From Candidatus Woesebacteria bacterium (lineage in GTDB: Bacteria; Patescibacteriota; Saccharimonadia; Saccharimonadales; EFPC-124), in NCBI GenBank assembly GCA_050115675.1, contig JASFQB010000001.1:1352-65351 (forward strand): 64,000 nt of DNA, written 5' to 3'. Position numbers and translations under genes: made by a program. Positions within the stretch are counted from its first letter, which is position 1. Each line of letters starts with the position of its first letter. A model generated the notes under the pieces. It had not been told where the DNA came from. It saw nothing but the letters and a program-made list of their open reading frames with translations, and ran no database searches. Below, one piece after another: positions 646-56,655 of the stretch.

Positions 646-1155
646 ATGCAGAACCACCCCATTCTCCAACCCCCAAAAAATTATGTAAAAAAACACAAAA
701 AAGCATTCACTGTTTTGTTTATCTTGCTGTTAATCTCAGGTGCTATAAGCTATTGGTACATCCAATCATCACATAATCTAGCCAAAGACATAGCCAAACC
801 CATAGAAAACTCTTTAATACAAGCTGGAGCCACAAAAGTATGCGAACACGGAGACCCTGGCCATGGACCGGATAATTTTAGTCCGTGGTATAGAGTCTAT
901 TTTGAATACGAAGGTGATACTCAAAGTGCAGAGAAGATACTATCCCGAGCGCTATCAGCAGTCGATTACTCTCTGGGCAATGTAGATGGTGGATACGGAT
1001 ACTTGGGCGATTATGTTTACAAGACGGACTCGACAAATGCTTCGTATGACATAATTTGGGCATTGACAAACAGTGGCACGCTTCACGCATGTGAAGGTGG
1101 AATATATAATGATGACGACCACACGGCAATTGCTATAGAGATACAAGGTAGATAA
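646..1155 (+). CDS. Membrane-anchored secreted protein, tandem paralog 2 (more divergent)
   Basis: 169-aa ORF with the same MQNHP...KKHKK N-terminus, TM helix and GHGPDNFSPWY core. It starts 9 nt after copy 1, within the repeated junction taattaaacaacATGca. Confidence 0.75.
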   Translation: MQNHPILQPPKNYVKKHKKAFTVLFILLLISGAISYWYIQSSHNLAKDIAKPIENSLIQAGATKVCEHGDPGHGPDNFSPWYRVYFEYEGDTQSAEKILSRALSAVDYSLGNVDGGYGYLGDYVYKTDSTNASYDIIWALTNSGTLHACEGGIYNDDDHTAIAIEIQGR

Positions 1156-1165
1156 TAACAATTCG

Positions 1166-1714
1166 ATGTCATTAGCTTGCGGTAAAACGATTGCCATCAT
1201 TCTGTCCACCCTCCTCATCCTCTTTGCAGGAATATCTTACCTATTCAACAGACTATCCAACAACCTAGCAGAAAACGTAGCTAGACCAATTGAAAAGTCT
1301 TTGGTAGAAGCTGGGGCTGTAAAGATGTGTAGCGGTGGAGACGCAGGCCATGGACCGGATAATTTTAGTCCGTGGTATTATGCTGTCTTCACGGTAAACG
1401 GAACTTTAGATGAAGCTCAGCAGATTGCACGGTCTGTTACTGAAAAAAATGGCTATAATTTAGGCGAATTCAATGAAGATGAGAACAAATCCTACCTATA
1501 CTCGAGAGGCAGCAAGCCTAGTGAGTATGAGAACCTCAAAAGCGGTGATGTTGGAATTGCTTTTAATATAAACTTAAAGGCACACTATGATCCAGATGTT
1601 GATGATGAGTTCTGCTCTTTTGGCAATGCAGTTGGGCTAGAAGACGGCAAGGCCTCATTTGTTTTATTCACGGGACTCCCCGAATACAAAACTCCCTCCT
1701 TCTTCCAGCTCTAA
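1166..1714 (+). CDS. Membrane-anchored secreted protein, tandem paralog 3 (5' end replaced, core and C-terminus as in copy 1)
   Basis: 182-aa ORF with the conserved block 1238-1378 and C-terminal LPEYKTPSFFQL. Its central third is unrelated to copy 1. Confidence 0.75.
   Translation: MSLACGKTIAIILSTLLILFAGISYLFNRLSNNLAENVARPIEKSLVEAGAVKMCSGGDAGHGPDNFSPWYYAVFTVNGTLDEAQQIARSVTEKNGYNLGEFNEDENKSYLYSRGSKPSEYENLKSGDVGIAFNINLKAHYDPDVDDEFCSFGNAVGLEDGKASFVLFTGLPEYKTPSFFQL
1238..1378 (+). repeat. 141-nt conserved block of the paralog family (copy 3)
   Basis: See 154-294. Confidence 0.9.
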
Positions 1715-1723
1715 TTAAACAAC

Positions 1724-1849
1724 ATGCAAAACCACCCCACTCTCCAATCCACAAAAACCTTTGTCAAAAAACACAAAAAGCTGCATTTTAGGTATTTATT
1801 GTGGTCTGGAGGGTCCAAAAACAAGTGTTTTAATAACGCTTTTGCTTGA
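1724..1849 (+). pseudogene. Truncated fourth copy of the paralog family (only the first ~19 codons, MQNHPTLQSTKTFVKKHKK, are homologous)
   Basis: The junction repeat taattaaacaacATGcaaaaccacccc recurs after copy 3. Homology ends after KKHKK and the frame stops at 1847-1849. Confidence 0.7.
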
Positions 1850-1989
1850 CCCCTGGGTGTATGTTTGATAAATTCTTATCTGTGTTTTGCTTGCCTAAGG
1901 CCAGAGGGCAAGTGCACGGTTACGACGCTGTTAAGACACCAGTGTTTAGAGTGGTAAGTAGCCGTAAAACCAACTAATAGGAGCAATCC

Positions 1990-2082
1990 ATGCCAATTGA
2001 CATCTGCAAGGTTCCTTCAAGAGCCAAGCGTATCGAGGTGGAGGTTATCCCCCCCGAGTGGCAAATGTATATCGCCCACTAA
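1990..2082 (+). CDS. Candidate 30-aa small ORF (MPIDICKVPSRAKRIEVEVIPPEWQMYIAH)
   Basis: AGGAG (1979-1983) sits 6 nt upstream of the ATG, and a terminator hairpin follows immediately. No homology was recognised. Confidence 0.3.
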   Translation: MPIDICKVPSRAKRIEVEVIPPEWQMYIAH

Positions 2083-2087
2083 ATATA

Positions 2088-2116
2088 ACAGCCCTGCTTT
2101 ATGCGGGGCTGTTTTG
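2088..2116. terminator. Bidirectional intrinsic terminator hairpin (acagccc...ggggctgt + TTTT)
   Basis: 7-8 bp GC stem followed by a T-run, lying between convergent ORFs. Confidence 0.7.
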
Positions 2117-2119
2117 GAT

Positions 2120-2791
2120 TTAATCTATCAAGCCTGCGTCTTTTAAGGTGCCTTCTACTTCGTTTTGAAGTCCATCTTCTGATAAAGCGATTTCTTCTGA
2201 CAAGACGTTGCCATTTATTATAAATGTAGGCGTGGCGGTAATTTTAAACGATTTTGCGGTCGCGCGGTCGCGGTTAATTTTATTGGCTACGTCGTCGCTG
2301 CTTAAGTCGGCTTGATATTTCTCTATGTCCAGCCCAAGCTGTTGAGCGTAACTTTCGAATATTGCACTACGTTCAGATATGCTTGCGCCACTCCAGCTGC
2401 TTTGATTGCTGTAGAGTTTGTCGTGCATTTCAAAGTACTTTCCTTGCAGCCCTGCGGCTTCAACGGCAGTGGCTGCGGCTAACGAGTTGGGGTGAATGGT
2501 TGTTAGCGGCAAGTTTCTAAACACAAAGGTTAGCTGGTCTTTGTATTTTTCGACTATGCTGCTGACTTTTTGATTCATTGTAGAGCAAGCGGGACACTGG
2601 TAGTCCGCATATTCAATTAGAATAACCTCATTTTGATCCGACCCAGACACGTGGTCGGTAATATTGCCCTCGGTAATAACTCTGCCTGCGTCGCCAGAGT
2701 AGCTTTCTTGGCTGCTTTGATTAGCAAAAATTACTCCTGCAATTATTGCAAAGCATATAACACCGAAAATAATCCATCGTGTTTTGTTCAT
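2120..2791 (-). CDS. DsbA-family thiol:disulfide oxidoreductase, membrane-anchored
   Basis: N-terminal TM helix, a thioredoxin-fold CPAC active site (YADYQCPACSTM) and a DsbA-like C-terminal TPTFIING motif. Confidence 0.85.
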   Translation of the reverse strand: MNKTRWIIFGVICFAIIAGVIFANQSSQESYSGDAGRVITEGNITDHVSGSDQNEVILIEYADYQCPACSTMNQKVSSIVEKYKDQLTFVFRNLPLTTIHPNSLAAATAVEAAGLQGKYFEMHDKLYSNQSSWSGASISERSAIFESYAQQLGLDIEKYQADLSSDDVANKINRDRATAKSFKITATPTFIINGNVLSEEIALSEDGLQNEVEGTLKDAGLID

Positions 2792-2889
2792 GTATCTTAT
2801 GATATATCAAGAAAAAGCCTAAGCATAGATGTCAAGACTGTAAAAGTTGTGATATAGTACGCTTGTTGCTACTACTTACGGAGGTAGAA

Positions 2890-3885
2890 GTGTCTCGTAG
2901 GTTTGTTATGCCCAGACGCTATGGCGGCATGCCAATTGATGACTTTGATGCTTTGTGTCGTAGAATTGTTAAAGCACTGGCAGTCAATAATCGCCAATTT
3001 TTGGCAAGTGGTGTGGTGGATGTTCATAAAAAGGCTAGTTACGCTGGCGTAGCTGCCGCAGATGTTTTTACCGTCGCCGACAAAAGCTCCGAGGCTCTTT
3101 TTGCTGAACTTGCATGTGAATTTCCTCAAAGTATTGGCTATATTGGCGAAGAAGGTCTTCGCAGGCCATGTACGCTTGGCGACTGCGATATTTACATTAC
3201 AATCGACCCGCTAGACGGGACTCGTATGTACATTACGGCACTAAACGAGGGTAGGCAGCTCCGTCCAGGAGAAGTGTCTGCTATGCTTGGCGTGCTTGTT
3301 GGGCCAAAAAATGAACCATCCATGCTTAAAAGCGTGGCAGGCTATGTTTGTGACGTGGCAGACGATACGCTTTACAGTCTTAGTCCAAATGGATCTTGTG
3401 TTGAGGTAACTAAGGGGCTTAACATTGTTGACTCTGTAAAACTTCAAACTGCCAGACGGGCGAATACTGGCTATCTTGCCATCCACAAAAGCCAGAGTCC
3501 TAGTGCTGTAGACTTTGTGGCAGATGGCGAGGTTGCTCGTTTGCTTACCACTTCAGCAAAGGATGGGGGCATTTTCGGTAATGTGGGTGTAGAGTTTGGC
3601 AGCGTTGGGCTGCGTGTTGCAAATGTATTTAACGGACAGTACTCGGCTTTGTTAAGGCCAAACTGTCAAAGTTTTTGCACGCCCTGGGACGAGGCGCCAC
3701 TTCAGGCGTTTTGTCGCATGGGTAATGCAAAAACGTTTGCAATTTTGCCAGACCGTCTTCAAGAGGTGGTTATTGCAGATGGAGTAATTAACAAAATTTC
3801 TAGGCGTGAGCACGATATTCTTTATCTACCTCTTAATTTTCTTCGCGAAGTTAAGCGCAAAGGTATCGAGGTAGTGACTTTGTAG
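2890..3885 (+). CDS. Inositol monophosphatase / FBPase-superfamily phosphatase
   Basis: Motifs IGEEG, ITIDPLDGTRMY and TPWDEAP. GGAGG lies 5 nt before GTG 2890; the ORF track starts at 2863. Confidence 0.7.
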   Translation: MSRRFVMPRRYGGMPIDDFDALCRRIVKALAVNNRQFLASGVVDVHKKASYAGVAAADVFTVADKSSEALFAELACEFPQSIGYIGEEGLRRPCTLGDCDIYITIDPLDGTRMYITALNEGRQLRPGEVSAMLGVLVGPKNEPSMLKSVAGYVCDVADDTLYSLSPNGSCVEVTKGLNIVDSVKLQTARRANTGYLAIHKSQSPSAVDFVADGEVARLLTTSAKDGGIFGNVGVEFGSVGLRVANVFNGQYSALLRPNCQSFCTPWDEAPLQAFCRMGNAKTFAILPDRLQEVVIADGVINKISRREHDILYLPLNFLREVKRKGIEVVTL

Positions 3886-7589: not shown

Positions 7590-8093
7590 GTGAACATTCG
7601 CCGTGGTCTTGTTGTGCTGGCAGCTGGCGTTGCGCTAGCTTTTGGCGTTTCGGCTTGTAGCGCTGATCAGGTTAAAGAGCAAGCCGCAGGCATTGCTGCA
7701 GACCAGTTGGCGCCGCAGATGCAGCAAACTTTGGGAGACGCTGGATTCACTAATGTAGTAGTAACTAGCGGTATGGAAAATAGCGACGATACTGGTAATC
7801 AAGAGCGGGCAGTGCTTTTGGCGCGGGTTGGCATTCCTCAGTTGAACGAAAGCTGTTCGTTGGGGTACAAGGCTCTTGTCACTAGTCCTGATACGATTTA
7901 CTTCGATAAGATATATACGACCGAAGATCCAGATGGTGCTCGCGTCTCTGACGATAGTGCTCGTAGTGCAACATCACCCGCAGACGCGCTGGCCTATCTG
8001 GCAAGTAATCATTCTGCTTGCCTGGTGCGCTGGCAAATAGCTAAGGGTTGTATTTACGGTGCGGGGGCTTATCAGCTCTCGCACCAACACTAA
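7590..8093 (+). CDS. Lipoprotein, function unknown
   Basis: Signal peptide with lipobox (LAFGVSAC). AAAGGAG SD before the GTG start. GC elevated. Confidence 0.7.
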   Translation: MNIRRGLVVLAAGVALAFGVSACSADQVKEQAAGIAADQLAPQMQQTLGDAGFTNVVVTSGMENSDDTGNQERAVLLARVGIPQLNESCSLGYKALVTSPDTIYFDKIYTTEDPDGARVSDDSARSATSPADALAYLASNHSACLVRWQIAKGCIYGAGAYQLSHQH

Positions 8094-8105
8094 AATTATA
8101 TATTT

Positions 8106-8780
8106 GTGATAAACTTTGGATTGATGATTAAAAACACTGACAAGCTATTTATTACTCGCAAACGCAAAAAATGGAAGTTTGCCCATTTTGCCGATTGGCA
8201 AAATTGTTTTGAGGTTTCTGAGGTTAACCCAAAGCAATGGAGTTCCCCGTTAGTCATCGAAGTTGGCGCCGGGACGGCCGATTTGAGTGTTGGCTTGGCA
8301 AAGCTTCAGCCTCAAAACAATTTTGTCGCGATAGACGTTAAAGCTGATCGTTTGTACACGGGCGCAAAGTTTTGTTTGCAAAATGATATTAAAAATATCA
8401 ACTTTGCAAGATCACATGCTGCGCAGATTGAGGAGCTGTTTAGGCCACATACTGTGGATAAAGTGTGGATAACTTTTCCTGATCCGTTTCCTCGTGACCG
8501 CCAGGCCAAGCACAGGTTGACAAACAGATCGTTCTTAAAGATATATCAAAAACTTTTAGCACCTGGCGGAGTTGTTCATTTTAAAACAGATAACCGCGAG
8601 CTATTTTTGTGGAGTTTAGAGCAAATTGTGGCTGACGGCTGGCGTATTAACGAGCTAAGTTTTGATTTGCACGAAAGCAATTTGCCCGAGCACTACAAAA
8701 TTACAACGTTTTACGAGCGCAAATTTATGGCGCAAGGCGTGCCAATAAATATGGTAAGTTTTACCAAATCTGACATGTAG
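8106..8780 (+). CDS. trmB: tRNA (guanine46-N7)-methyltransferase
   Basis: SAM motif VEVGAGTAD and the TrmB signature ITFPDPFPRDRQAKHRL. The start could be ATG 8124. Confidence 0.85.
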   Translation: MINFGLMIKNTDKLFITRKRKKWKFAHFADWQNCFEVSEVNPKQWSSPLVIEVGAGTADLSVGLAKLQPQNNFVAIDVKADRLYTGAKFCLQNDIKNINFARSHAAQIEELFRPHTVDKVWITFPDPFPRDRQAKHRLTNRSFLKIYQKLLAPGGVVHFKTDNRELFLWSLEQIVADGWRINELSFDLHESNLPEHYKITTFYERKFMAQGVPINMVSFTKSDM

Positions 8781-8839
8781 CAGTGATGGTTTACGCTTTT
8801 GGCTAACTAGACTATACTTTAGGTAGTAAGATCAAAATT

Positions 8840-10669
8840 ATGCCAGAACAACAAAAAACATCATACAATTTAAACAAAAAGTCAGATCAGCTAAAATCTT
8901 TTGATGACGATGTAGCTAAAATTGAGCAAGCTGAAAAAGCCAGCCAAGAAAAAACAGAGTTTTTTAAGCCATCGCCTAGCGGTCTTGCACAGTCAACAAG
9001 GCCAGATAGTTTTAAGGGTAAGCTTAAAAAACTGCTAAAAAGTCGCAAATTTTGGATTTTGACTGCACTGTCATTGACTGCTTGTTTGATTGCTGCTTGG
9101 TTTGTTCAGCCCAGCAGGCTATGGTTGGTAAATTTGCTTGGACAAAGAACTAGCTTAAATATTACAGTATCTATTCCTGCAGATGGCAAGCAAGAGGCTT
9201 CAAAGCTCCAAAATGCCATAGTTATGGTGAATGGCAAAGAATACAAAACCAACCAAGAAGGGGTCGTAAATATTACAGACCAGTCTTATGGCCAAGTTGA
9301 TATTGATGTGACAAAAAATGGCTACGAATCTGTAAATTTAAAACGCACACTAGATTTTGACCCATTCTTTTATGTATGTGGTGGGCGGCAGGCAGATGAA
9401 GACGTGCGCAATATAGAATTTAGCCTAACTTCTGTTGGAATTGCAACTGCTTTTAAGGCCGTAGATTGGCTAAGCGGCCAGCCAATTACTTCTGGCGAAT
9501 ACCAAGTCGGCGACTTAAAAGTCAAGCCGGATGATACGGGTTTGGTAGAGTTTAAGGCTCCCCCAAGCGACAACAGTAAAGTAAGCTTAACGAGCATTTT
9601 TGAGGGTGAGTACATAGACAAAACTTTTGAAGTTGATTCTGGCGCAGAAAAGGTTGCAGTAGTAGAATTTGTGCCCGCAGGCAGACAGTACTTTACCAGC
9701 AAAAAAGATGGCGCTCTTGGAATTTACAGCAGCAATATTGACGGAAGTGATCAAAAGCTTGTAATTTCGGGCACAGGTAAAGAAACTGATTATACTCCAT
9801 TTGTTGTTTCGCCTGACGGCAAATATGGCTTGCTGGCTAGTACCCGAGATGGTGCTAAAGACGACAAACATGCTTTATTGCAATATCTATACATTGTTGA
9901 CCTTGAAAAGCGTTTGCTGACAAAAATTGACGAAGCGCATTATTTTGCCTTTACTGATTGGTCTGATGACGTAATGGTTTACCAAAAACAGCAAACGGCG
10001 AATATTACAGACGAAAATTCAATCGCACAGCTACGAGCTGTAGATGTATCTACTGGTAATTTGCAAGATATTGCTACAGCTGCAAGCTTTGGTCGTAAGA
10101 TTGTTGGACTGCAGCAGGTTGCCTACGTGCAAAGAATAAGAGACAAAATTGGCGACACGTACACCACAAGCTTTAATCGTTATGACTTAAAAAACTCCTC
10201 CGCAAAAGAGCTTGCCACTGGAGTGGTAGACAATAATGTGGTTCAGGCAAGCTTTGACGTTGTAGGCTTTCAGACTCAATCAGACCAAAAATGGCACGAA
10301 TACAATTTAAATGCTAGCGCACTAAAAGATAGCGCTCAACCCACTGCCTCAACTTCAAAAGCATATATAAATGGTGCCAGTCCAAATAACAAAAATCGCC
10401 TAATCGTAGACAGAATCGACGGTAAATTTACAATAATCGCTAAAAGTATTGATGATGGTGCAGAAAAACAAATATTTGGAGATGGTGCTCTGACAGGACA
10501 GGTGAGATGGCTGCAAGACAATGTAATTACGTTTAGAATTGTTAGTGATCAACAGACGGCAGACTATGCGGTGTCAATAAAAGGCGGAGAGCCAAAAAAG
10601 ATTTCGGACGTCACTGCTATAGTGGATAGCCAAAATATCAGAGATATTAACACTTTTGAATTTTATTAA
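8840..10669 (+). CDS. Membrane-anchored extracytoplasmic protein with TolB-like (PD40/WD40-like) beta-propeller repeats
   Basis: 609 aa with one TM helix near residue 70 and repeats such as YFTSKKDGALGIYSSNIDGSDQK and VSPDGKYGLLAS. Confidence 0.6.
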   Translation: MPEQQKTSYNLNKKSDQLKSFDDDVAKIEQAEKASQEKTEFFKPSPSGLAQSTRPDSFKGKLKKLLKSRKFWILTALSLTACLIAAWFVQPSRLWLVNLLGQRTSLNITVSIPADGKQEASKLQNAIVMVNGKEYKTNQEGVVNITDQSYGQVDIDVTKNGYESVNLKRTLDFDPFFYVCGGRQADEDVRNIEFSLTSVGIATAFKAVDWLSGQPITSGEYQVGDLKVKPDDTGLVEFKAPPSDNSKVSLTSIFEGEYIDKTFEVDSGAEKVAVVEFVPAGRQYFTSKKDGALGIYSSNIDGSDQKLVISGTGKETDYTPFVVSPDGKYGLLASTRDGAKDDKHALLQYLYIVDLEKRLLTKIDEAHYFAFTDWSDDVMVYQKQQTANITDENSIAQLRAVDVSTGNLQDIATAASFGRKIVGLQQVAYVQRIRDKIGDTYTTSFNRYDLKNSSAKELATGVVDNNVVQASFDVVGFQTQSDQKWHEYNLNASALKDSAQPTASTSKAYINGASPNNKNRLIVDRIDGKFTIIAKSIDDGAEKQIFGDGALTGQVRWLQDNVITFRIVSDQQTADYAVSIKGGEPKKISDVTAIVDSQNIRDINTFEFY

Positions 10670-18287: not shown

Positions 18288-18323
18288 AAGAAAGAAGTTC
18301 ACATATATGTGAACTTCTTTCTT
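18288..18323 (-). terminator. 36-nt perfect palindrome / terminator directly 3' of the tRNA
   Basis: The sequence aagaaagaagttcacatat|atgtgaacttctttctt. Confidence 0.7.
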
Positions 18324-22228: not shown

Positions 22229-22305
22229 CGCGGGGTAGAGCAGTCTGGCAGCTCGCTTGGCTCATAACCAAGAGGTCGTAGGTTCAAATCCTACCCCCGC
22301 TACCA
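22229..22305 (+). tRNA. Initiator-type tRNA-fMet (anticodon CAT), CCA encoded
   Basis: 5' CGCGGGG and 3' CCCCGCT-A-CCA give an unpaired position 1-72 (C1xU72), the bacterial initiator hallmark. The anticodon loop is CTCATAA and the T arm is GTAGG-TTCAAAT-CCTAC. Confidence 0.9.
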
Positions 22306-22340
22306 AGAAAAGACGATCACATCTGTGGTCGTTTTTTCTT
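22281..22340 (+). repeat. Direct repeat copy 1: last 25 nt of tRNA-fMet (from the T-stem/T-loop on) plus 35 nt including its terminator
   Basis: 60/60 identical to 22456-22515. Confidence 0.95.
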
Positions 22341-22455
22341 TCTGGATAAGGGTTTGAACCTACGACCGTAGGCATTAACTGCCTGTGGCAGTTAATGTTT
22401 TCGTACTTAACGCTCGAGTGGAGGGCCTGCCCAAACGAGAGGAAAAGTGTTAAAG
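22341..22455. other. 115-bp insert between the tRNA-fMet 3'-end direct repeats
   Basis: It carries an inverted 18/19 copy of the tRNA variable/T-arm segment (22349-22367 versus 22274-22292). This is followed by a perfect 11-bp hairpin CATTAACTGCC-tgt-GGCAGTTAATG (22373-22397) and TTTT. No ORF is present. Confidence 0.85.
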
Positions 22456-22515
22456 GGTTCAAATCCTACCCCCGCTACCAAGAAAAGACGATCACATCTG
22501 TGGTCGTTTTTTCTT
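22456..22515 (+). repeat. Direct repeat copy 2 (orphan tRNA-fMet 3' fragment plus terminator)
   Basis: 60/60 identical to 22281-22340. The upstream sequence cannot complete a cloverleaf. Confidence 0.95.
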
Positions 22516-29684: not shown

Positions 29685-29761
29685 GGCAGCGTAGCTCAGT
29701 CGGTTAGAGCGTAGGACTCATAAGCCTAAGGTCACTGGTTCAATCCCAGTCGCTGCTACCA
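29685..29761 (+). tRNA. tRNA-Met elongator-type (anticodon CAT), CCA encoded
   Basis: Acceptor GGCAGCG/CGCTGCT (G1-U72), anticodon stem TAGGA/GCCTA region with loop CTCATAA, and T arm ACTGG-TTCAATC-CCAGT. Confidence 0.9.
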
Positions 29762-29798
29762 CGAAAAATCCTCACTTTTTGGTGAGGCTTTTTCGTGG
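29762..29798 (+). terminator. tRNA terminator; the outer stem includes the CCA end (CCACGAAAAA...TTTTTCGTGG), the inner stem is CCTCAC/GTGAGG
   Basis: Nested hairpin followed by a T-run. Confidence 0.75.
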
Positions 29799-29820
29799 CA
29801 AAAGTATTTTTACTAAAAGA

Positions 29821-29895
29821 GTGAACCAGCGATCTTAGGTATAAACTCCAGTGGAAACTTGTGTTTTCCGACCTTACGCCGAGACGGAGTTTATA
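29821..29895. other. Inverted tRNA T-arm-like fragment plus a long hairpin TATAAACTCC...GGAGTTTATA
   Basis: The reverse complement of 29821-29834 is gatcgctggttcac, compared with ggtcgctggttcaa in the tRNA at 18324-18399. A 10-bp stem pairs 29840-29849 with 29886-29895. Confidence 0.5.
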
Positions 29896-29921
29896 AGGAG
29901 GGCAGGGGTGGGATAGGCCTT

Positions 29922-30513: not shown

Positions 30514-31458
30514 TTGAAGGCTCAATATATTATTAAGATATTACGACTACCAGATATAAAACCGGGACGATATATTGTTGCAGTGTCGGGTGGAGTGGAC
30601 TCGATGGTGCTATTAGATTTGTTGCAAAAAACGCCAGGCATTGAAATAATTGTGGCTCATTTTGATCATGGAATCCGCGAAGAATCGCAACAAGATCGCA
30701 AATTCGTACAAAATTACGCAATGTCGCACAATCTTTTTTTTGTTTACAAGTGCGTGGTACTGGGGTCTGGTGCCAGTGAGGAATCAGCCAGAAAAGCAAG
30801 ATACGGCTTTTTGCGACACTCTTGCAAAAAATACAACGCTTTGGCAATTATTATGGCTCATCATCAAGATGATTTGCTAGAAACCGCCGTTATCAATCTA
30901 TTAAGAGGCACTGGGCGCAACGGTTTAACGTCACTTCGTAGTCACAAACAGCTGTTAAGGCCAATGTTGGAATTTTCTAAGATTCAAATTATAAACTATG
31001 CGAAAGAGAGAGGTTTGCTTTGGAGAGAAGATAAAACAAATAGCGACACAAAATATTTAAGAAATTACATTCGCCAAAAAATTTTAAAAAACATTGACGA
31101 ACCAACTAGAAAAAAATTACAATTAATCATTGTGCGACATTTCGCACTAAATCAACAAATTGATACTGAGCTTAATAATCTACAAAAAAAATTTTGTACC
31201 ATTAATTTGGTAAAAAATTTTGCACTACTCCCCCGCTATCTTTTGGTCATGTTACCGACAGATGTTTCGTATGAGTTGCTGCAAAAAACACTTAAAGATT
31301 TAACAGGGAATACTGTTGTAAGAAATGTTGCAAATCAGGCGCTGCTTTTTGCAAAAACAGCAAAAAATGACAAAAAGTTTGAACTAGGCAGCTTTTGGCA
31401 GCTGCGTGTTTTGGATGCGCAGATAATTGTAGAGCCCAAGGTCAACATGATAAGCTAA
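30514..31458 (+). CDS. tilS: tRNA(Ile)-lysidine synthetase
   Basis: PP-loop VAVSGGVDSMVLL, in the conserved tilS-ftsH arrangement. Confidence 0.85.
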   Translation: MKAQYIIKILRLPDIKPGRYIVAVSGGVDSMVLLDLLQKTPGIEIIVAHFDHGIREESQQDRKFVQNYAMSHNLFFVYKCVVLGSGASEESARKARYGFLRHSCKKYNALAIIMAHHQDDLLETAVINLLRGTGRNGLTSLRSHKQLLRPMLEFSKIQIINYAKERGLLWREDKTNSDTKYLRNYIRQKILKNIDEPTRKKLQLIIVRHFALNQQIDTELNNLQKKFCTINLVKNFALLPRYLLVMLPTDVSYELLQKTLKDLTGNTVVRNVANQALLFAKTAKNDKKFELGSFWQLRVLDAQIIVEPKVNMIS

Positions 31459-54697: not shown

Positions 54698-54788
54698 TAA
54701 CAATCGCTCCCGATCTGTTTATGGATGTTGTTGGCTGCAACCTATTGACAAAACGTCTGCAAAAGTGTAAATTACTACTGTTAGCTAT

Positions 54789-54865
54789 GGGTCCATAGCT
54801 CAGCCGGTTAGAGCACCTGCCTTTTAAGCAGGGTGTCCTGGGTTCGAGTCCCAGTGGACCCTCCA
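54789..54865 (+). tRNA. tRNA-Lys (anticodon TTT), CCA encoded
   Basis: Acceptor GGGTCCA/TGGACCC, anticodon stem CCTGC/GCAGG with loop CTTTTAA, and T arm CTGGG-TTCGAGT-CCCAG. Confidence 0.92.
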
Positions 54866-54899
54866 CGAAAAATACCTCATCGTAAGATGGGGTGTTTTT
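54845..54899 (+). repeat. Direct repeat copy 1: last 21 nt of tRNA-Lys (from mid T-loop) plus 34 nt including its terminator
   Basis: 55/55 identical to 55030-55084. Confidence 0.95.
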
Positions 54900-55029
54900 T
54901 CGTGAGAAGTTTAATAATGTGTCTCGAACCCAGGTGTTCTGGGTGAGAACTGCCAGCGGCAGTTCGCAAGAGAATCAACTCTTGAAAACTGGTTTTCAAA
55001 GATGTTGTTCTGGGGCCGCGGAACGTGGC
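54900..55029. other. 130-bp insert between the tRNA-Lys 3'-end direct repeats
   Basis: It carries an inverted exact 12-nt copy of the tRNA-Lys T-arm (54923-54934 versus 54837-54848). It also has a hairpin CCCAG-gtgtt-CTGGG (54929-54943) and an 8-bp hairpin GAACTGCC-agc-GGCAGTTC (54947-54965). No ORF is present. Confidence 0.85.
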
Positions 55030-55084
55030 CGAGTCCCAGTGGACCCTCCACGAAAAATACCTCATCGTAAGATGGGGTGTTTTT
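55030..55084 (+). repeat. Direct repeat copy 2 (orphan tRNA-Lys 3' fragment plus terminator)
   Basis: 55/55 identical to 54845-54899. Confidence 0.95.
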
Positions 55085-55265
55085 ATGGAAAGCTTGGTGT
55101 GACTTGAGCTCGAATAGGGCTGTTGGTGGGCTCCTATTTGTCATTTGTGGCAAGCCTTGTATGGGTAATAAAACTTACTGTGTTAATATTAATGACAAGA
55201 GCATGCCTTAGCCGTTATCAATTAGGAAGTGCTCGATTTTATAAAGCATAAATAGGAGATGGTAT

Positions 55266-55484
55266 ATGGCAAAATATTATGTAAACGAAGACACCTCGGC
55301 AAATCCAGAAGGCAATAATGAGATACATACAGAGGATTGCTATTTGTTTCCTGATATAGAAGATACATGTGTGTTTCTTTGCGAAACTGACGATTGCAGC
55401 GAAGCTGTTGAGGATGCAAAACAGAGAGGCTATATCAAAGCCGATGGCTGCATGCATTGTTGCAAAAGCTGTCACACGGGATAA
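55266..55484 (+). CDS. Small acidic Cys-rich protein (72 aa)
   Basis: TAGGAG SD; 8 Cys including C-x2-C-x2-C-H at the C-terminus (CMHCCKSCH). Confidence 0.6.
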   Translation: MAKYYVNEDTSANPEGNNEIHTEDCYLFPDIEDTCVFLCETDDCSEAVEDAKQRGYIKADGCMHCCKSCHTG

Positions 55485-55572
55485 AAATAATTTTGTCGCT
55501 TATAGATCGGCAAGCTAAATAAAATGCGACTGAACAGATGCTTATGCGGCGTACCTTGCTCAGCCGCGTTGG

Positions 55573-55953
55573 CTATTTGCTACATTGTGCATTGTAAGCG
55601 TTAAGTAGTGCTGTCGCGAATGTGCTGACAGTTCTGTCGACGTCCTCTTGATAGCAATTGGTTGCGAAGACCACGCTCTCCCAGGTATGACTAGTGACGA
55701 CTACTTCAGAGTAGCGACCATTAGGGCTAAAATACTGCGGTCCGCCGGGTGGTGGGCTAACGCGAATGTGATCTTCGAGCGCCATTGACGTTTGGCCAAG
55801 GTTTACAATATTACCGTCATCGTCATATTCAATGACAAGCTCGGCTGCTGCGCCCCGCGCAACACTCCACACCAGTTTCACTAGCTGATCGCTCGTGATT
55901 GGTTGCTTGTCAAAGCGGACGGTGGCAGTGGCTGTGGGGCTTTCGCTACCCAT
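55573..55953 (-). CDS. Hypothetical protein (126 aa), GC-elevated
   Basis: Own TTGACA-17-TAAAGT promoter and AAGAGG SD. Confidence 0.5.
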   Translation of the reverse strand: MGSESPTATATVRFDKQPITSDQLVKLVWSVARGAAAELVIEYDDDGNIVNLGQTSMALEDHIRVSPPPGGPQYFSPNGRYSEVVVTSHTWESVVFATNCYQEDVDRTVSTFATALLNAYNAQCSK

Positions 55954-56101
55954 GGTTAACCTCTTTAACTGAACGGCAAAGGACTAAGATACTTTAACAC
56001 TAAAGCCTATGCGTGTCAATTTTGTTATTGACGTAACTGTGTTGTGGCAGGGCATATAATAAGTTTTAAGAGGCGCTATGTAAAAACATAGCGCCTTGGA
56101 A

Positions 56102-56506
56102 TCACTTCTCGTATGGGTTATTGGCTTCGTGCACCTCCCTTGCAATGTTTGACCAGAGGGCAGTTGACAACGGGTCGATCACCGCAGGTCCGATTCCGCT
56201 GCCCATTGTGTATCCGCAGCTTTGCAGTGCGGCGGGAAACTCGGTGTGGGCCTGCGGATTGGAGCTGACGATGTAAAACATGCCGATATTCAGCTTGGGC
56301 CCAACCGTCGCTCGCATCTGGATAAAGGTAATCAGACGCTTGACCGTGTCTGTGCCAAGGTCGTGGTCAAGCACAAGGACGTCTACGTGTCGGGTTGCCA
56401 GTGCGACTGCGGCATGCTCGACTGTGCGGGCATGAATTACCTCATACTCTTCCGGAAAAATCAGTGTGCGCAGGTCATCTACCACAAGGGCCAATAGCTT
56501 GCTCAT
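56102..56506 (-). CDS. Stand-alone receiver (REC)-fold protein of the LDHDLG type (possibly the 'cyclic-phosphate-processing receiver' family)
   Basis: LLALVVDDLR....VLVLDHDLG pattern. GGGAG SD before ATG 56506. GC elevated. Confidence 0.5.
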   Translation of the reverse strand: MSKLLALVVDDLRTLIFPEEYEVIHARTVEHAAVALATRHVDVLVLDHDLGTDTVKRLITFIQMRATVGPKLNIGMFYIVSSNPQAHTEFPAALQSCGYTMGSGIGPAVIDPLSTALWSNIAREVHEANNPYEK

Positions 56507-56655
56507 TTGTACTCCCAAAAAGAGACAGTTGTTTAATTATACTATATTTATGTAAAAATGTAAAGTTATGTCAATTATTAAAGCTAAGTTGTAAAAAATG
56601 CAAAGTATCTTGCTTAAGCTAGCATTGTTTACCCAATTTTGTTTATAATTTTTTT

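Follow-up and report, generated by a model that had tools for sequence, protein, structure and literature searches.

What kind of sequence places a second, perfect copy of a tRNA gene's 3' end and terminator 130 bp behind the first? The question is raised by the tRNA-Lys(TTT) locus in a 64-kb stretch (the window, 64,000 nucleotides analysed as a whole) of contig JASFQB010000001.1 from a Candidatus Woesebacteria bacterium (assembly GCA_050115675.1). An initial annotation had noted here a 55-bp duplication around a 130-bp insert, an inverted copy of the tRNA's own T-arm and two hairpins, had seen the same order of parts at a tRNA-fMet locus, and had proposed an element family that copies or captures the local tRNA 3' end. 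We find that the insert is not a scar. The unit is an 87-nt structured RNA (the core) that lies within the T loop of a shortened copy of the tRNA, together with a fold-back complement of that site, and the evidence supports a family of such elements, tied to tRNA genes and apparently undescribed, whose hosts are Saccharibacteria and related or other uncultured bacteria. We favour, with a probability of roughly one half, a protein-less, tRNA-restoring family of integrative elements built around a conserved RNA, in which the units would move by recombination and the RNA would have a role of its own.

The core RNA and its family

At the tRNA-Lys locus the two repeat copies agree at all 55 positions, and the inverted T-arm copy and both hairpins lie where they had first been seen (Table 1). 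The 12 exact bases of the inverted copy (CTCGAACCCAGG, 54923–54934) are the reverse complement of tRNA-Lys positions 49–60 and follow the first repeat copy after a spacer of 23 nt. Read from the sequence, this segment could pair through CTCG with 55030–55033 and through ACCCAG with 54939–54944. The 3' strand of the first hairpin (helix Pa) is at the same time part of a direct copy of tRNA positions 44–54 (54933–54943, one mismatch). The core, which we call type 1, begins at the end of Pa and extends to the first base of the orphan tRNA 3' end (54944–55030), and is thus nested in the T loop of a truncated tRNA-Lys copy. Both originally described hairpins (Pa and H1) and the two further helices of the core (H2 and H3) are all present in the predicted minimum free energy (MFE) fold (z = -5.65). 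No plausible gene is contained in the 130 bp.

The window's type 1 also occurs in three metagenomic contigs (L038, L052 and L058), whose hairpins vary by compensatory substitutions. A pattern derived from these four copies matched 82 metagenomic stretches, about 60 of them true copies, and a covariance model (R1) run over metagenomic and Saccharibacteria contigs raised the number of type-1 cores to 79, including the one full core within the window. The absence of further copies, which would have spoken against an element family, can therefore be set aside. In a structural alignment of 41 distinct core sequences, U1-G2 pairs with C-A, and three hairpins follow: H1 (8 bp, NGU triloop), H2 (long and irregular) and H3 (7 bp, GAA triloop, one G·U pair that is invariant), with a short AG linker between H1 and H2 and a GG linker between H2 and H3. 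The base helix of H2, AGAA/UUCU in the window, is GGAG/CGAC or GAAA/UUUC in other copies. Across the alignment 98% of the cells are paired and 21 of the 30 pairs show compensatory changes, a level matched by none of 500 shuffles, while slid controls reached 30–45%. Because of the invariant G·U and other wobble pairs the structure is specific to the tRNA's strand, which argues for RNA rather than double-stranded DNA.

Searches against Rfam 15, at the gathering threshold and at E<=10, returned tRNA and chance matches only. At E<=10 none of the known self-cleaving ribozymes (hammerhead, twister, twister-sister, pistol, hatchet, hepatitis delta virus-like) was found in 54700–55200, and the group I and group II intron models gave no match at either threshold. 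Neither a transfer-messenger RNA (tmRNA), standard or permuted, nor a permuted tRNA-like gene was detected (ARAGORN, Rfam). Two local derivations were tried and rejected, namely H1 as a product of the neighbouring tRNA's anticodon arm (at fMet the two sequences show no correspondence) and a tRNA-like minihelix formed from the orphan acceptor strand (the insert has no partner for TGGACCC). Full-text searches, the coverage of which was incomplete, yielded no description of a tRNA-nested core RNA, in line with the initial annotation, which had recognised no described element type here.

These data also bear on the simplest alternative, that tandem tRNA duplications decayed independently at the two window loci and share a hairpin by chance. 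Taken alone the hairpin is indeed only marginally significant: the AACTGCC-N3-GGCAGTT pattern has two matches in the window against 0.26 expected, and three of 100 shuffles also reach two. H1, however, covaries within a conserved RNA family that is homologous at 79 places, beside many different tRNAs, and no part of the core derives from the missing portions of the tRNA. With this heavy covariation and the repeated insertion described below, decay is refuted, as the initial annotation had expected.

Table 1. Coordinates of the parts of the tRNA-Lys unit and of the related units at the other tRNA genes of the window.
Feature	Positions	Strand	Basis
Promoter-like site of the tRNA-Lys gene (TTGACA-17-TAAATT)	54745..54773	+	promoter scan
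Intact tRNA-Lys(TTT), CCA encoded	54789..54865	+	ARAGORN; Rfam 72.3 bits
Direct repeat, copy 1: tRNA positions 57-77 (C56 of T loop to CCA), terminator hairpin 54874-54893, T-run	54845..54899	+	55/55 identity
Inverted copy of the uninterrupted T-arm site	54918..54934	+	17 nt at 88%; 12 exact bases 54923-54934
Helix Pa, hairpin ACCCAG-GTGTT-CTGGGT	54928..54944	+	MFE fold
Type-1 core, 87-nt structured RNA (UGA, H1, GCAAG, H2, GG, H3)	54944..55030	+	covariance model R1, 102.9 bits, E 3e-23; covariation
H1, GAACTGCC-AGC-GGCAGTTC	54947..54965	+	MFE fold; 7/10 modelled pairs covary across the family
H2, long irregular hairpin	54971..55011	+	fold and alignment; base helix AGAA/UUCU
H3, GGCCGCG-GAA-CGTGGCC, including the invariant G·U pair	55014..55030	+	alignment; GU in 41/41
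Direct repeat, copy 2: orphan tRNA-Lys 3' end 55030-55050 (to CCA), identical terminator 55051-55084	55030..55084	+	55/55 identity
Intact tRNA-fMet(CAT), host of the sister element	22229..22305	+	ARAGORN, Rfam
Inverted copy of the tRNA-fMet T-arm site	22349..22367	+	19 nt, 95%
Type-3 core of the fMet insert	22373..22455	+	only H1 fits the type-1 model (10.2 bits)
Orphan tRNA-fMet 3' end plus terminator	22456..22515	+	60/60 vs 22281-22340
Decayed type-3 element	29819..29915	+	inverted copy 29819-29839 (21 nt, 86%, 3 mismatches), degenerate H1, homology to fMet core

Linkage to tRNA genes and two mirror arrangements

Most type-1 cores, though not every one, could be placed beside a tRNA gene: 54 of the 79 have an intact tRNA on the same strand within 420 nt and of the remaining 25, 19 are no more than 150 nt away from a contig end, leaving a few with neither. 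Good cores of this last kind occur in L086 (1421–1506), L123 (2995–3080) and L146 (939–1026), and could belong to another host RNA or to very old arrays. The tRNA-linked copies represent 23 type/anticodon combinations with at least 20 different anticodons. In all copies with a visible neighbourhood the core occupies a loop position in a partial copy of the tRNA, be it the T loop, the anticodon loop or the D region, and its flanks match the neighbouring tRNA on either side of that position; the intact tRNA on the same strand is mostly 44–94 nt away.

Two arrangements were found. In the downstream type (30 copies, including the window's) the intact tRNA and a terminator are followed by an inverted copy of the site, a direct copy of approximately positions 42–54, the core, and the tRNA from about position 56 to CCA. 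The core mostly starts 69–94 nt from the tRNA, and it lies in the T loop wherever its flanks can be mapped. The mirror, upstream type (24 copies) starts with the 5' part of the tRNA as far as the loop, which is followed by the core, about 10 nt of 3' flank, an inverted copy or other hairpin, a spacer of mostly 44–75 nt that is often promoter-like (e.g. in L125), and the intact tRNA. Its sites are more varied, comprising the T loop, the position after G37 of the anticodon loop (Pro-GGG, Leu-TAG), the D loop (Glu) and the D-stem/position-26 junction (Ala, Pro-TGG, Ser), and the 5' flank ends in G in all cases. Being complementary to the site in its uninterrupted form, the inverted segment is able to pair with both flanks of the core, and the two arrangements are therefore circular permutations of one multi-helix junction.

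Such an architecture might be expected of a host non-coding RNA family that shares a transcript with the tRNA, as its leader or trailer, and whose core acts as a sensor, decoy or processing module. The inverted (anti-tRNA) and direct (anti-anti-tRNA) copies would then switch pairing and control maturation of the neighbouring tRNA or, alternatively, the unit would release defined tRNA fragments, so that the partial copies would be functional and not scars. The pairing of the inverted copy with both flanks, the constant placement of the core, which accompanies its matching tRNA in cis with the same orientation and a fixed spacing, the promoter-like sequences of the upstream form, and the long-term purifying selection with compensatory changes in each copy, cores within one contig being diverged, all agree with this proposal. 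It is harder to reconcile with the patchy distribution of the units, since an orphan 3' end is present at only about 8–12 of 59 Saccharibacteria tRNA-Lys loci. The distal tRNA part extends to the natural end of the tRNA although pairing would need only about 10 nt, partial tRNA copies are commonly decayed beside an intact core (half of the orphans, and many of the upstream pseudo-tRNA parts), and the Arg-TCG copy of L107 has no inverted segment at all. Together with the tandem arrays of decaying copies and the occurrence of differing core types at one site (see below), this makes a host RNA rather improbable in our estimation.

A second possibility is an intron-like or reverse-splicing RNA that inserts into exposed tRNA loops, at the level of RNA or single-stranded DNA, and survives only in spare partial copies. 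Insertion at single-stranded loops of the folded tRNA, always after G, and an inverted copy that spans both 'exons' like an internal guide would be in keeping with it. When 56 cores were removed by virtual splicing at six boundary offsets, however, no junction-spanning tRNA was obtained. Core removal thus yields no complete tRNA and the units are not introns; with truncation in every interrupted copy, there is no whole tRNA for splicing to produce. Partial tRNA copies free of a core, which might have served as pre-existing landing sites, were not seen either, and in view of the missing group I/II signature and ribozyme match we consider this explanation very doubtful. The units do resemble group I introns, which reside in tRNA anticodon loops and the tmRNA T loop, as structured RNAs in tRNA loops of the same phylum with a guide-like complementary segment, but the core has 87 nt as against 200 nt or more, matches no Rfam intron and has its guide-like segment outside. 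Group I introns have been reported in Patescibacteria tRNAs (PMC13011429); they concern a different thing from the tRNA-nested core.

Insertion, terminators and origin of the units

Tandem arrays of units were detected in ten contigs (L038, L039, L075, L082, L087, L088, L107, L119, L125 and L146), and different core types occupy the same site within them. Copies farther from the tRNA are more decayed in seven of these (L075, L038, L039, L082, L088, L125 and L107); L075, for example, has an intact type-2 unit directly at the tRNA and, 1.3 kb beyond it, a type-1 core that is decayed (24 bits). L104 and L146 carry units on both sides of one tRNA. In relatives anchored by the RimK-like protein upstream of tRNA-Lys, orphan tRNA-Lys 3' ends lie 120–175 nt downstream of the gene in roughly one species in five, occasionally as a tandem pair, and the inserts between the tRNA and the orphan are of a few types.

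The polarity of insertion can be read from a filled and an empty site. L039 carries one type-3 unit (about 176 nt) more than L041. The terminator adjacent to the tRNA and the type-2 unit of L041 are orthologous to those after the first orphan of L039 (52/67 identity), whereas the tRNA-proximal terminator of L039 is less similar to the L041 terminator (41/69). The L039 unit therefore entered between the tRNA body and the old 3' end, bringing a 3' end and terminator with it.

Under the favoured explanation of a protein-less integrative element, a unit measures about 175–190 bp and combines the folded core of about 87 nt, which would be transcribed in the tRNA sense, with the missing part of the tRNA and an expression signal (the 3' end and terminator here, the promoter-like spacer and 5' part in the mirror form). 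It would enter a tRNA gene at a loop, where the partial tRNA copy that it carries would recombine with the gene in the chromosome through an enzyme acting in trans. An intact tRNA would be regenerated on one side and the displaced original tRNA end left as an orphan next to the core, the 55-bp repeat being the junction duplication. The core itself is under selection as RNA, probably as a ribozyme or a protein-binding scaffold that would serve the spread or retention of the element.

Several observations weigh against this explanation. No excised form, no empty and filled pair within one species and no recombinase were seen. Where one contig has cores at several tRNAs (L099, L107), these are diverged and thus do not point to recent bursts; a host function, too, would be compatible with a long residence under selection. 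The model leaves unaccounted for how the inverted copy and the two flanks, short and long, take on the sequence of a new tRNA. The downstream-type unit is not preceded by any promoter-like site and none was found inside the inserts (promoter scan), so expression would need read-through of the terminator. Finally, the two terminators at each window locus are identical (within the 55- and 60-nt repeats), whereas in relatives the element brings its own terminator, which differs from the resident one. A repeat that includes the whole terminator and ends exactly at the T-run occurs only in the window, at both loci, and a further step is therefore needed, such as recent duplication of the unit, gene conversion or a copying step that acts on the resident end. 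The idea that gene conversion alone made the terminators identical was dropped because it does not fit the segment boundaries, as were snap-back cDNA, hairpin-opening footprints and a Cas1-like long target duplication.

Comparison between strains reached as far as a single contig: L164 (a Logan contig, SRR11713588), an independent assembly of the same strain and the only other contig with an identical upstream protein, ends inside the 55-bp repeat after ...CCACGAAAAATA. Such an end is expected if the repeat breaks short-read assemblies, and tRNA-linked elements may fragment assemblies of the candidate phyla radiation at tRNA loci.

No gene accompanies the units. Pfam, PADLOC and NCBIfam searches of the open reading frames (ORFs) beside the window loci returned no recombinase or reverse-transcriptase domain, no IS110 DEDD, TnpB or IscB ORF lies beside these loci or recurs in relatives, and the ORFs up to 3.5 kb from 54 cores, compared all against all, revealed no recurring protein family, only local synteny. 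Collections of phages (50,697 records) and plasmids (72,556 records) contained no blastn match. A viral origin was likewise rejected, as two pattern scans of viral contigs matched only coding-like sequence, at 21–22 bits at best and with no tRNA nearby.

These results bear directly on the idea that the units are deletion scars of integrase-borne islands or prophages, each consisting of an attL and an attR remnant with the core as an attP arm or untranslated region. tRNA-targeting integrases leave a direct repeat of the tRNA 3' segment, restore the tRNA and insert at the T or anticodon loop, which is the classic signature seen here, and small cargo islets lie between tRNA-Lys repeats in L082 and L057. 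On the other hand, the compact layout and spacing are common to more than 50 units, a uniformity not expected from random deletions; the core shows strand-specific, RNA-type covariation; no copy is linked to an integrase or matched in the phage, plasmid and viral searches above; and the mirror form duplicates the tRNA 5' part, which is unusual for integrases. We therefore regard deletion scars as unlikely.

The two contigs with islets are worth describing. In L082 (reverse strand; oriented positions 1057–3100) tRNA-Lys(CTT) is followed by a type-1 unit with its orphan, 1.5 kb with two cargo ORFs, a degenerate orphan and terminator, and a second type-1 unit with its orphan. L057 contains two complete tRNA-Lys genes 1.6 kb apart (7914–9638), between which lie a 207-amino-acid ORF and small adjacent ORFs of 129 and 83 amino acids, by their look presumably a toxin–antitoxin pair; there is no integrase-sized ORF between these genes.

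As a whole, tRNA-targeting islands and prophages are the closest known systems in their working (3' direct repeat, restored tRNA, T- and anticodon-loop sites, accretion of orphan ends). The tRNA-linked unit differs from them in its size of 175–190 bp, without integrase or other gene, in having a strand-specific structured RNA exactly in the loop of the orphan copy and a fold-back complement of the site, in the mirror form that duplicates the 5' part with a promoter-like spacer, and in the additional use of D-loop and D-stem sites. It also recalls cis-mobilizable elements (CIMEs), being protein-less, with att-like repeats at a tRNA gene and a presumed factor in trans. CIMEs are attL–attR units without recombination genes, deletion derivatives of identifiable integrative and conjugative elements, and carry no conserved RNA; here, by contrast, the layout is uniform in more than 50 copies, and no parent element turned up in the contigs examined, where no dedicated search for one was made.

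Miniature inverted-repeat transposable elements (MITEs) and other non-autonomous DNA transposons were considered and rejected. MITEs have terminal inverted repeats, a target-site duplication of 2–15 bp and many near-identical dispersed copies per genome. The ends of the tRNA-Lys insert (TCGTGAGAAG...GGAACGTGGC) are not inverted repeats and the duplication measures 55–60 bp; as for dispersal, there is one full core in 64 kb, cores within a contig are diverged, and the copies whose neighbourhood is visible are tRNA-linked.

Two further likenesses are analogies only. Eukaryotic tRNA-derived short interspersed nuclear elements likewise join a tRNA 5' part to a conserved core, as in the upstream form, and comprise several core families with many copies, but the present units are bacterial, each abuts its matching tRNA instead of being dispersed, and hallmarks of retrotransposition are lacking. 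The IS110 bridge RNA and the IS200/IS605 omega RNA are folded RNAs of about 90–180 nt with target-identical and target-complementary segments. Here no recombinase, TnpB or IscB gene is adjacent, the target-derived segments can pair with each other, and the long target duplication is unlike those elements.

A more speculative proposal, to which we give a rather low probability, is that the core is a new candidate small ribozyme or ribonucleoprotein scaffold that makes the unit an RNA-directed mobile element, one that restores the tRNA and has no protein gene. The fold-back segment would serve as a splint or guide aligning the tRNA loop with the core, recombination would take place at the level of RNA or single-stranded DNA, possibly through a small circular intermediate, and the local tRNA end would be copied during insertion. 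This proposal would fit the circularly permuted arrangements, the insertion at exposed loops after G and the duplications of the window that end exactly at the T-run.

If the favoured explanation of an integrative element is true, tRNA genes of a major uncultured radiation commonly carry a previously overlooked folded RNA nested in a spare piece of the same tRNA and are occupied without any element-encoded protein. The cores, some 80 in number and clearly covarying, would then form a new class of structured RNA, and the units would account for orphan tRNA fragments and assembly breaks at tRNA loci. The family would then offer a substrate for asking how a mobile or regulatory RNA acquires its target sequence, and whether reduced genomes control or protect their tRNAs via such units.

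Sister core types and the other tRNA loci of the window

The order of parts is indeed common to the tRNA-Lys and tRNA-fMet loci, the latter with a repeat of 60/60 positions and an inverted copy of 19 nt at 95% identity. At the fMet locus the inverted copy is followed by GTAGG (22368–22372), which closes a CCTAC-GACC-GTAGG hairpin, and by a core of another type (type 3, also present in L007 and L039) that consists of H1 (22374–22396, ATTAACTGCC-TGT-GGCAGTTAAT), GTTTTC and a long hairpin. The hairpin that was first noticed at both loci thus proved to be H1 of a conserved RNA, but the two cores are otherwise of different types. Types 1 and 3 share only this 5' module, with its CC-NGU-GG top, and continue with GCAAGG and G(A/U)GUUUUC, respectively. 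Type 3 as a diverged type 1 was rejected, since H1 alone scores with R1. H1 at the two loci is a homologous module of two sister core types; the identity of the stem in the window may be due to chance (AACTGCC occurs in about 6 of 52 type-1 cores).

In further core types the hairpins are unrelated, but the parts follow the familiar plan of an inverted copy, a direct flank, a structured insert in the T loop and an orphan end. Type 2, an example of which contains ...GGTTCGGTC...GCGCAGATGTGCGC..., was found in L041, L043, L044, L071 and L075; other cases are L024, L106 at tRNA-Asp and L088 downstream of tRNA-Pro.

The window contains four tRNAs (ARAGORN, Rfam). The third (29685–29761), also with a CAT anticodon, is followed by the decayed type-3 element, in which a GTGTTTTCC...ACGC...GAG block is homologous to the fMet core; no orphan 3' end was found downstream of this tRNA. 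An ORF at 30514–31458, 750 nt downstream, begins AVSGGVDSMV... and, by the look of its start, is presumably a TilS/PP-loop ATPase. If so, the nearby tRNA may be tRNA-Ile2 and not tRNA-Met. The fourth, a tRNA-Met on the minus strand, is without an element and is followed by a perfect 18+18-nt palindrome (18288–18323), which may be a bidirectional terminator.

In the terminators of the window's tRNAs (54863–54907, 22303–22345 and 29759–29798) and of those in relatives the stem is extended by pairing of the T-run, and of the TGG or CGTG after it, with an A-tract and the encoded CCA; the mature tRNA 3' end is consequently buried in the terminator helix. Just 3' of the second terminator of the tRNA-Lys unit, at about 55105–55135, the sequence CTCGAATAGGGC-TGTT-GGTGGGC weakly resembles the module of inverted copy, loop and direct copy, and may be the remnant of an older unit.

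On the upstream side of the tRNA-Lys locus, the RimK-like protein has relatives at 70–83% identity only in genomes of Saccharibacteria (Saccharimonadales), the group from which the window comes. Downstream, a variable islet (55266–56518), occupied by other genes in relatives, separates the orphan end from a large membrane protein that we take to be ComEC-like, judged from its sequence. The islet encodes a cysteine-rich protein of 72 amino acids, a protein of 126 amino acids without family, and one of 138 amino acids with a cREC_REC domain (PF20274, E 4e-11), a cyclic-phosphate processing receiver domain.

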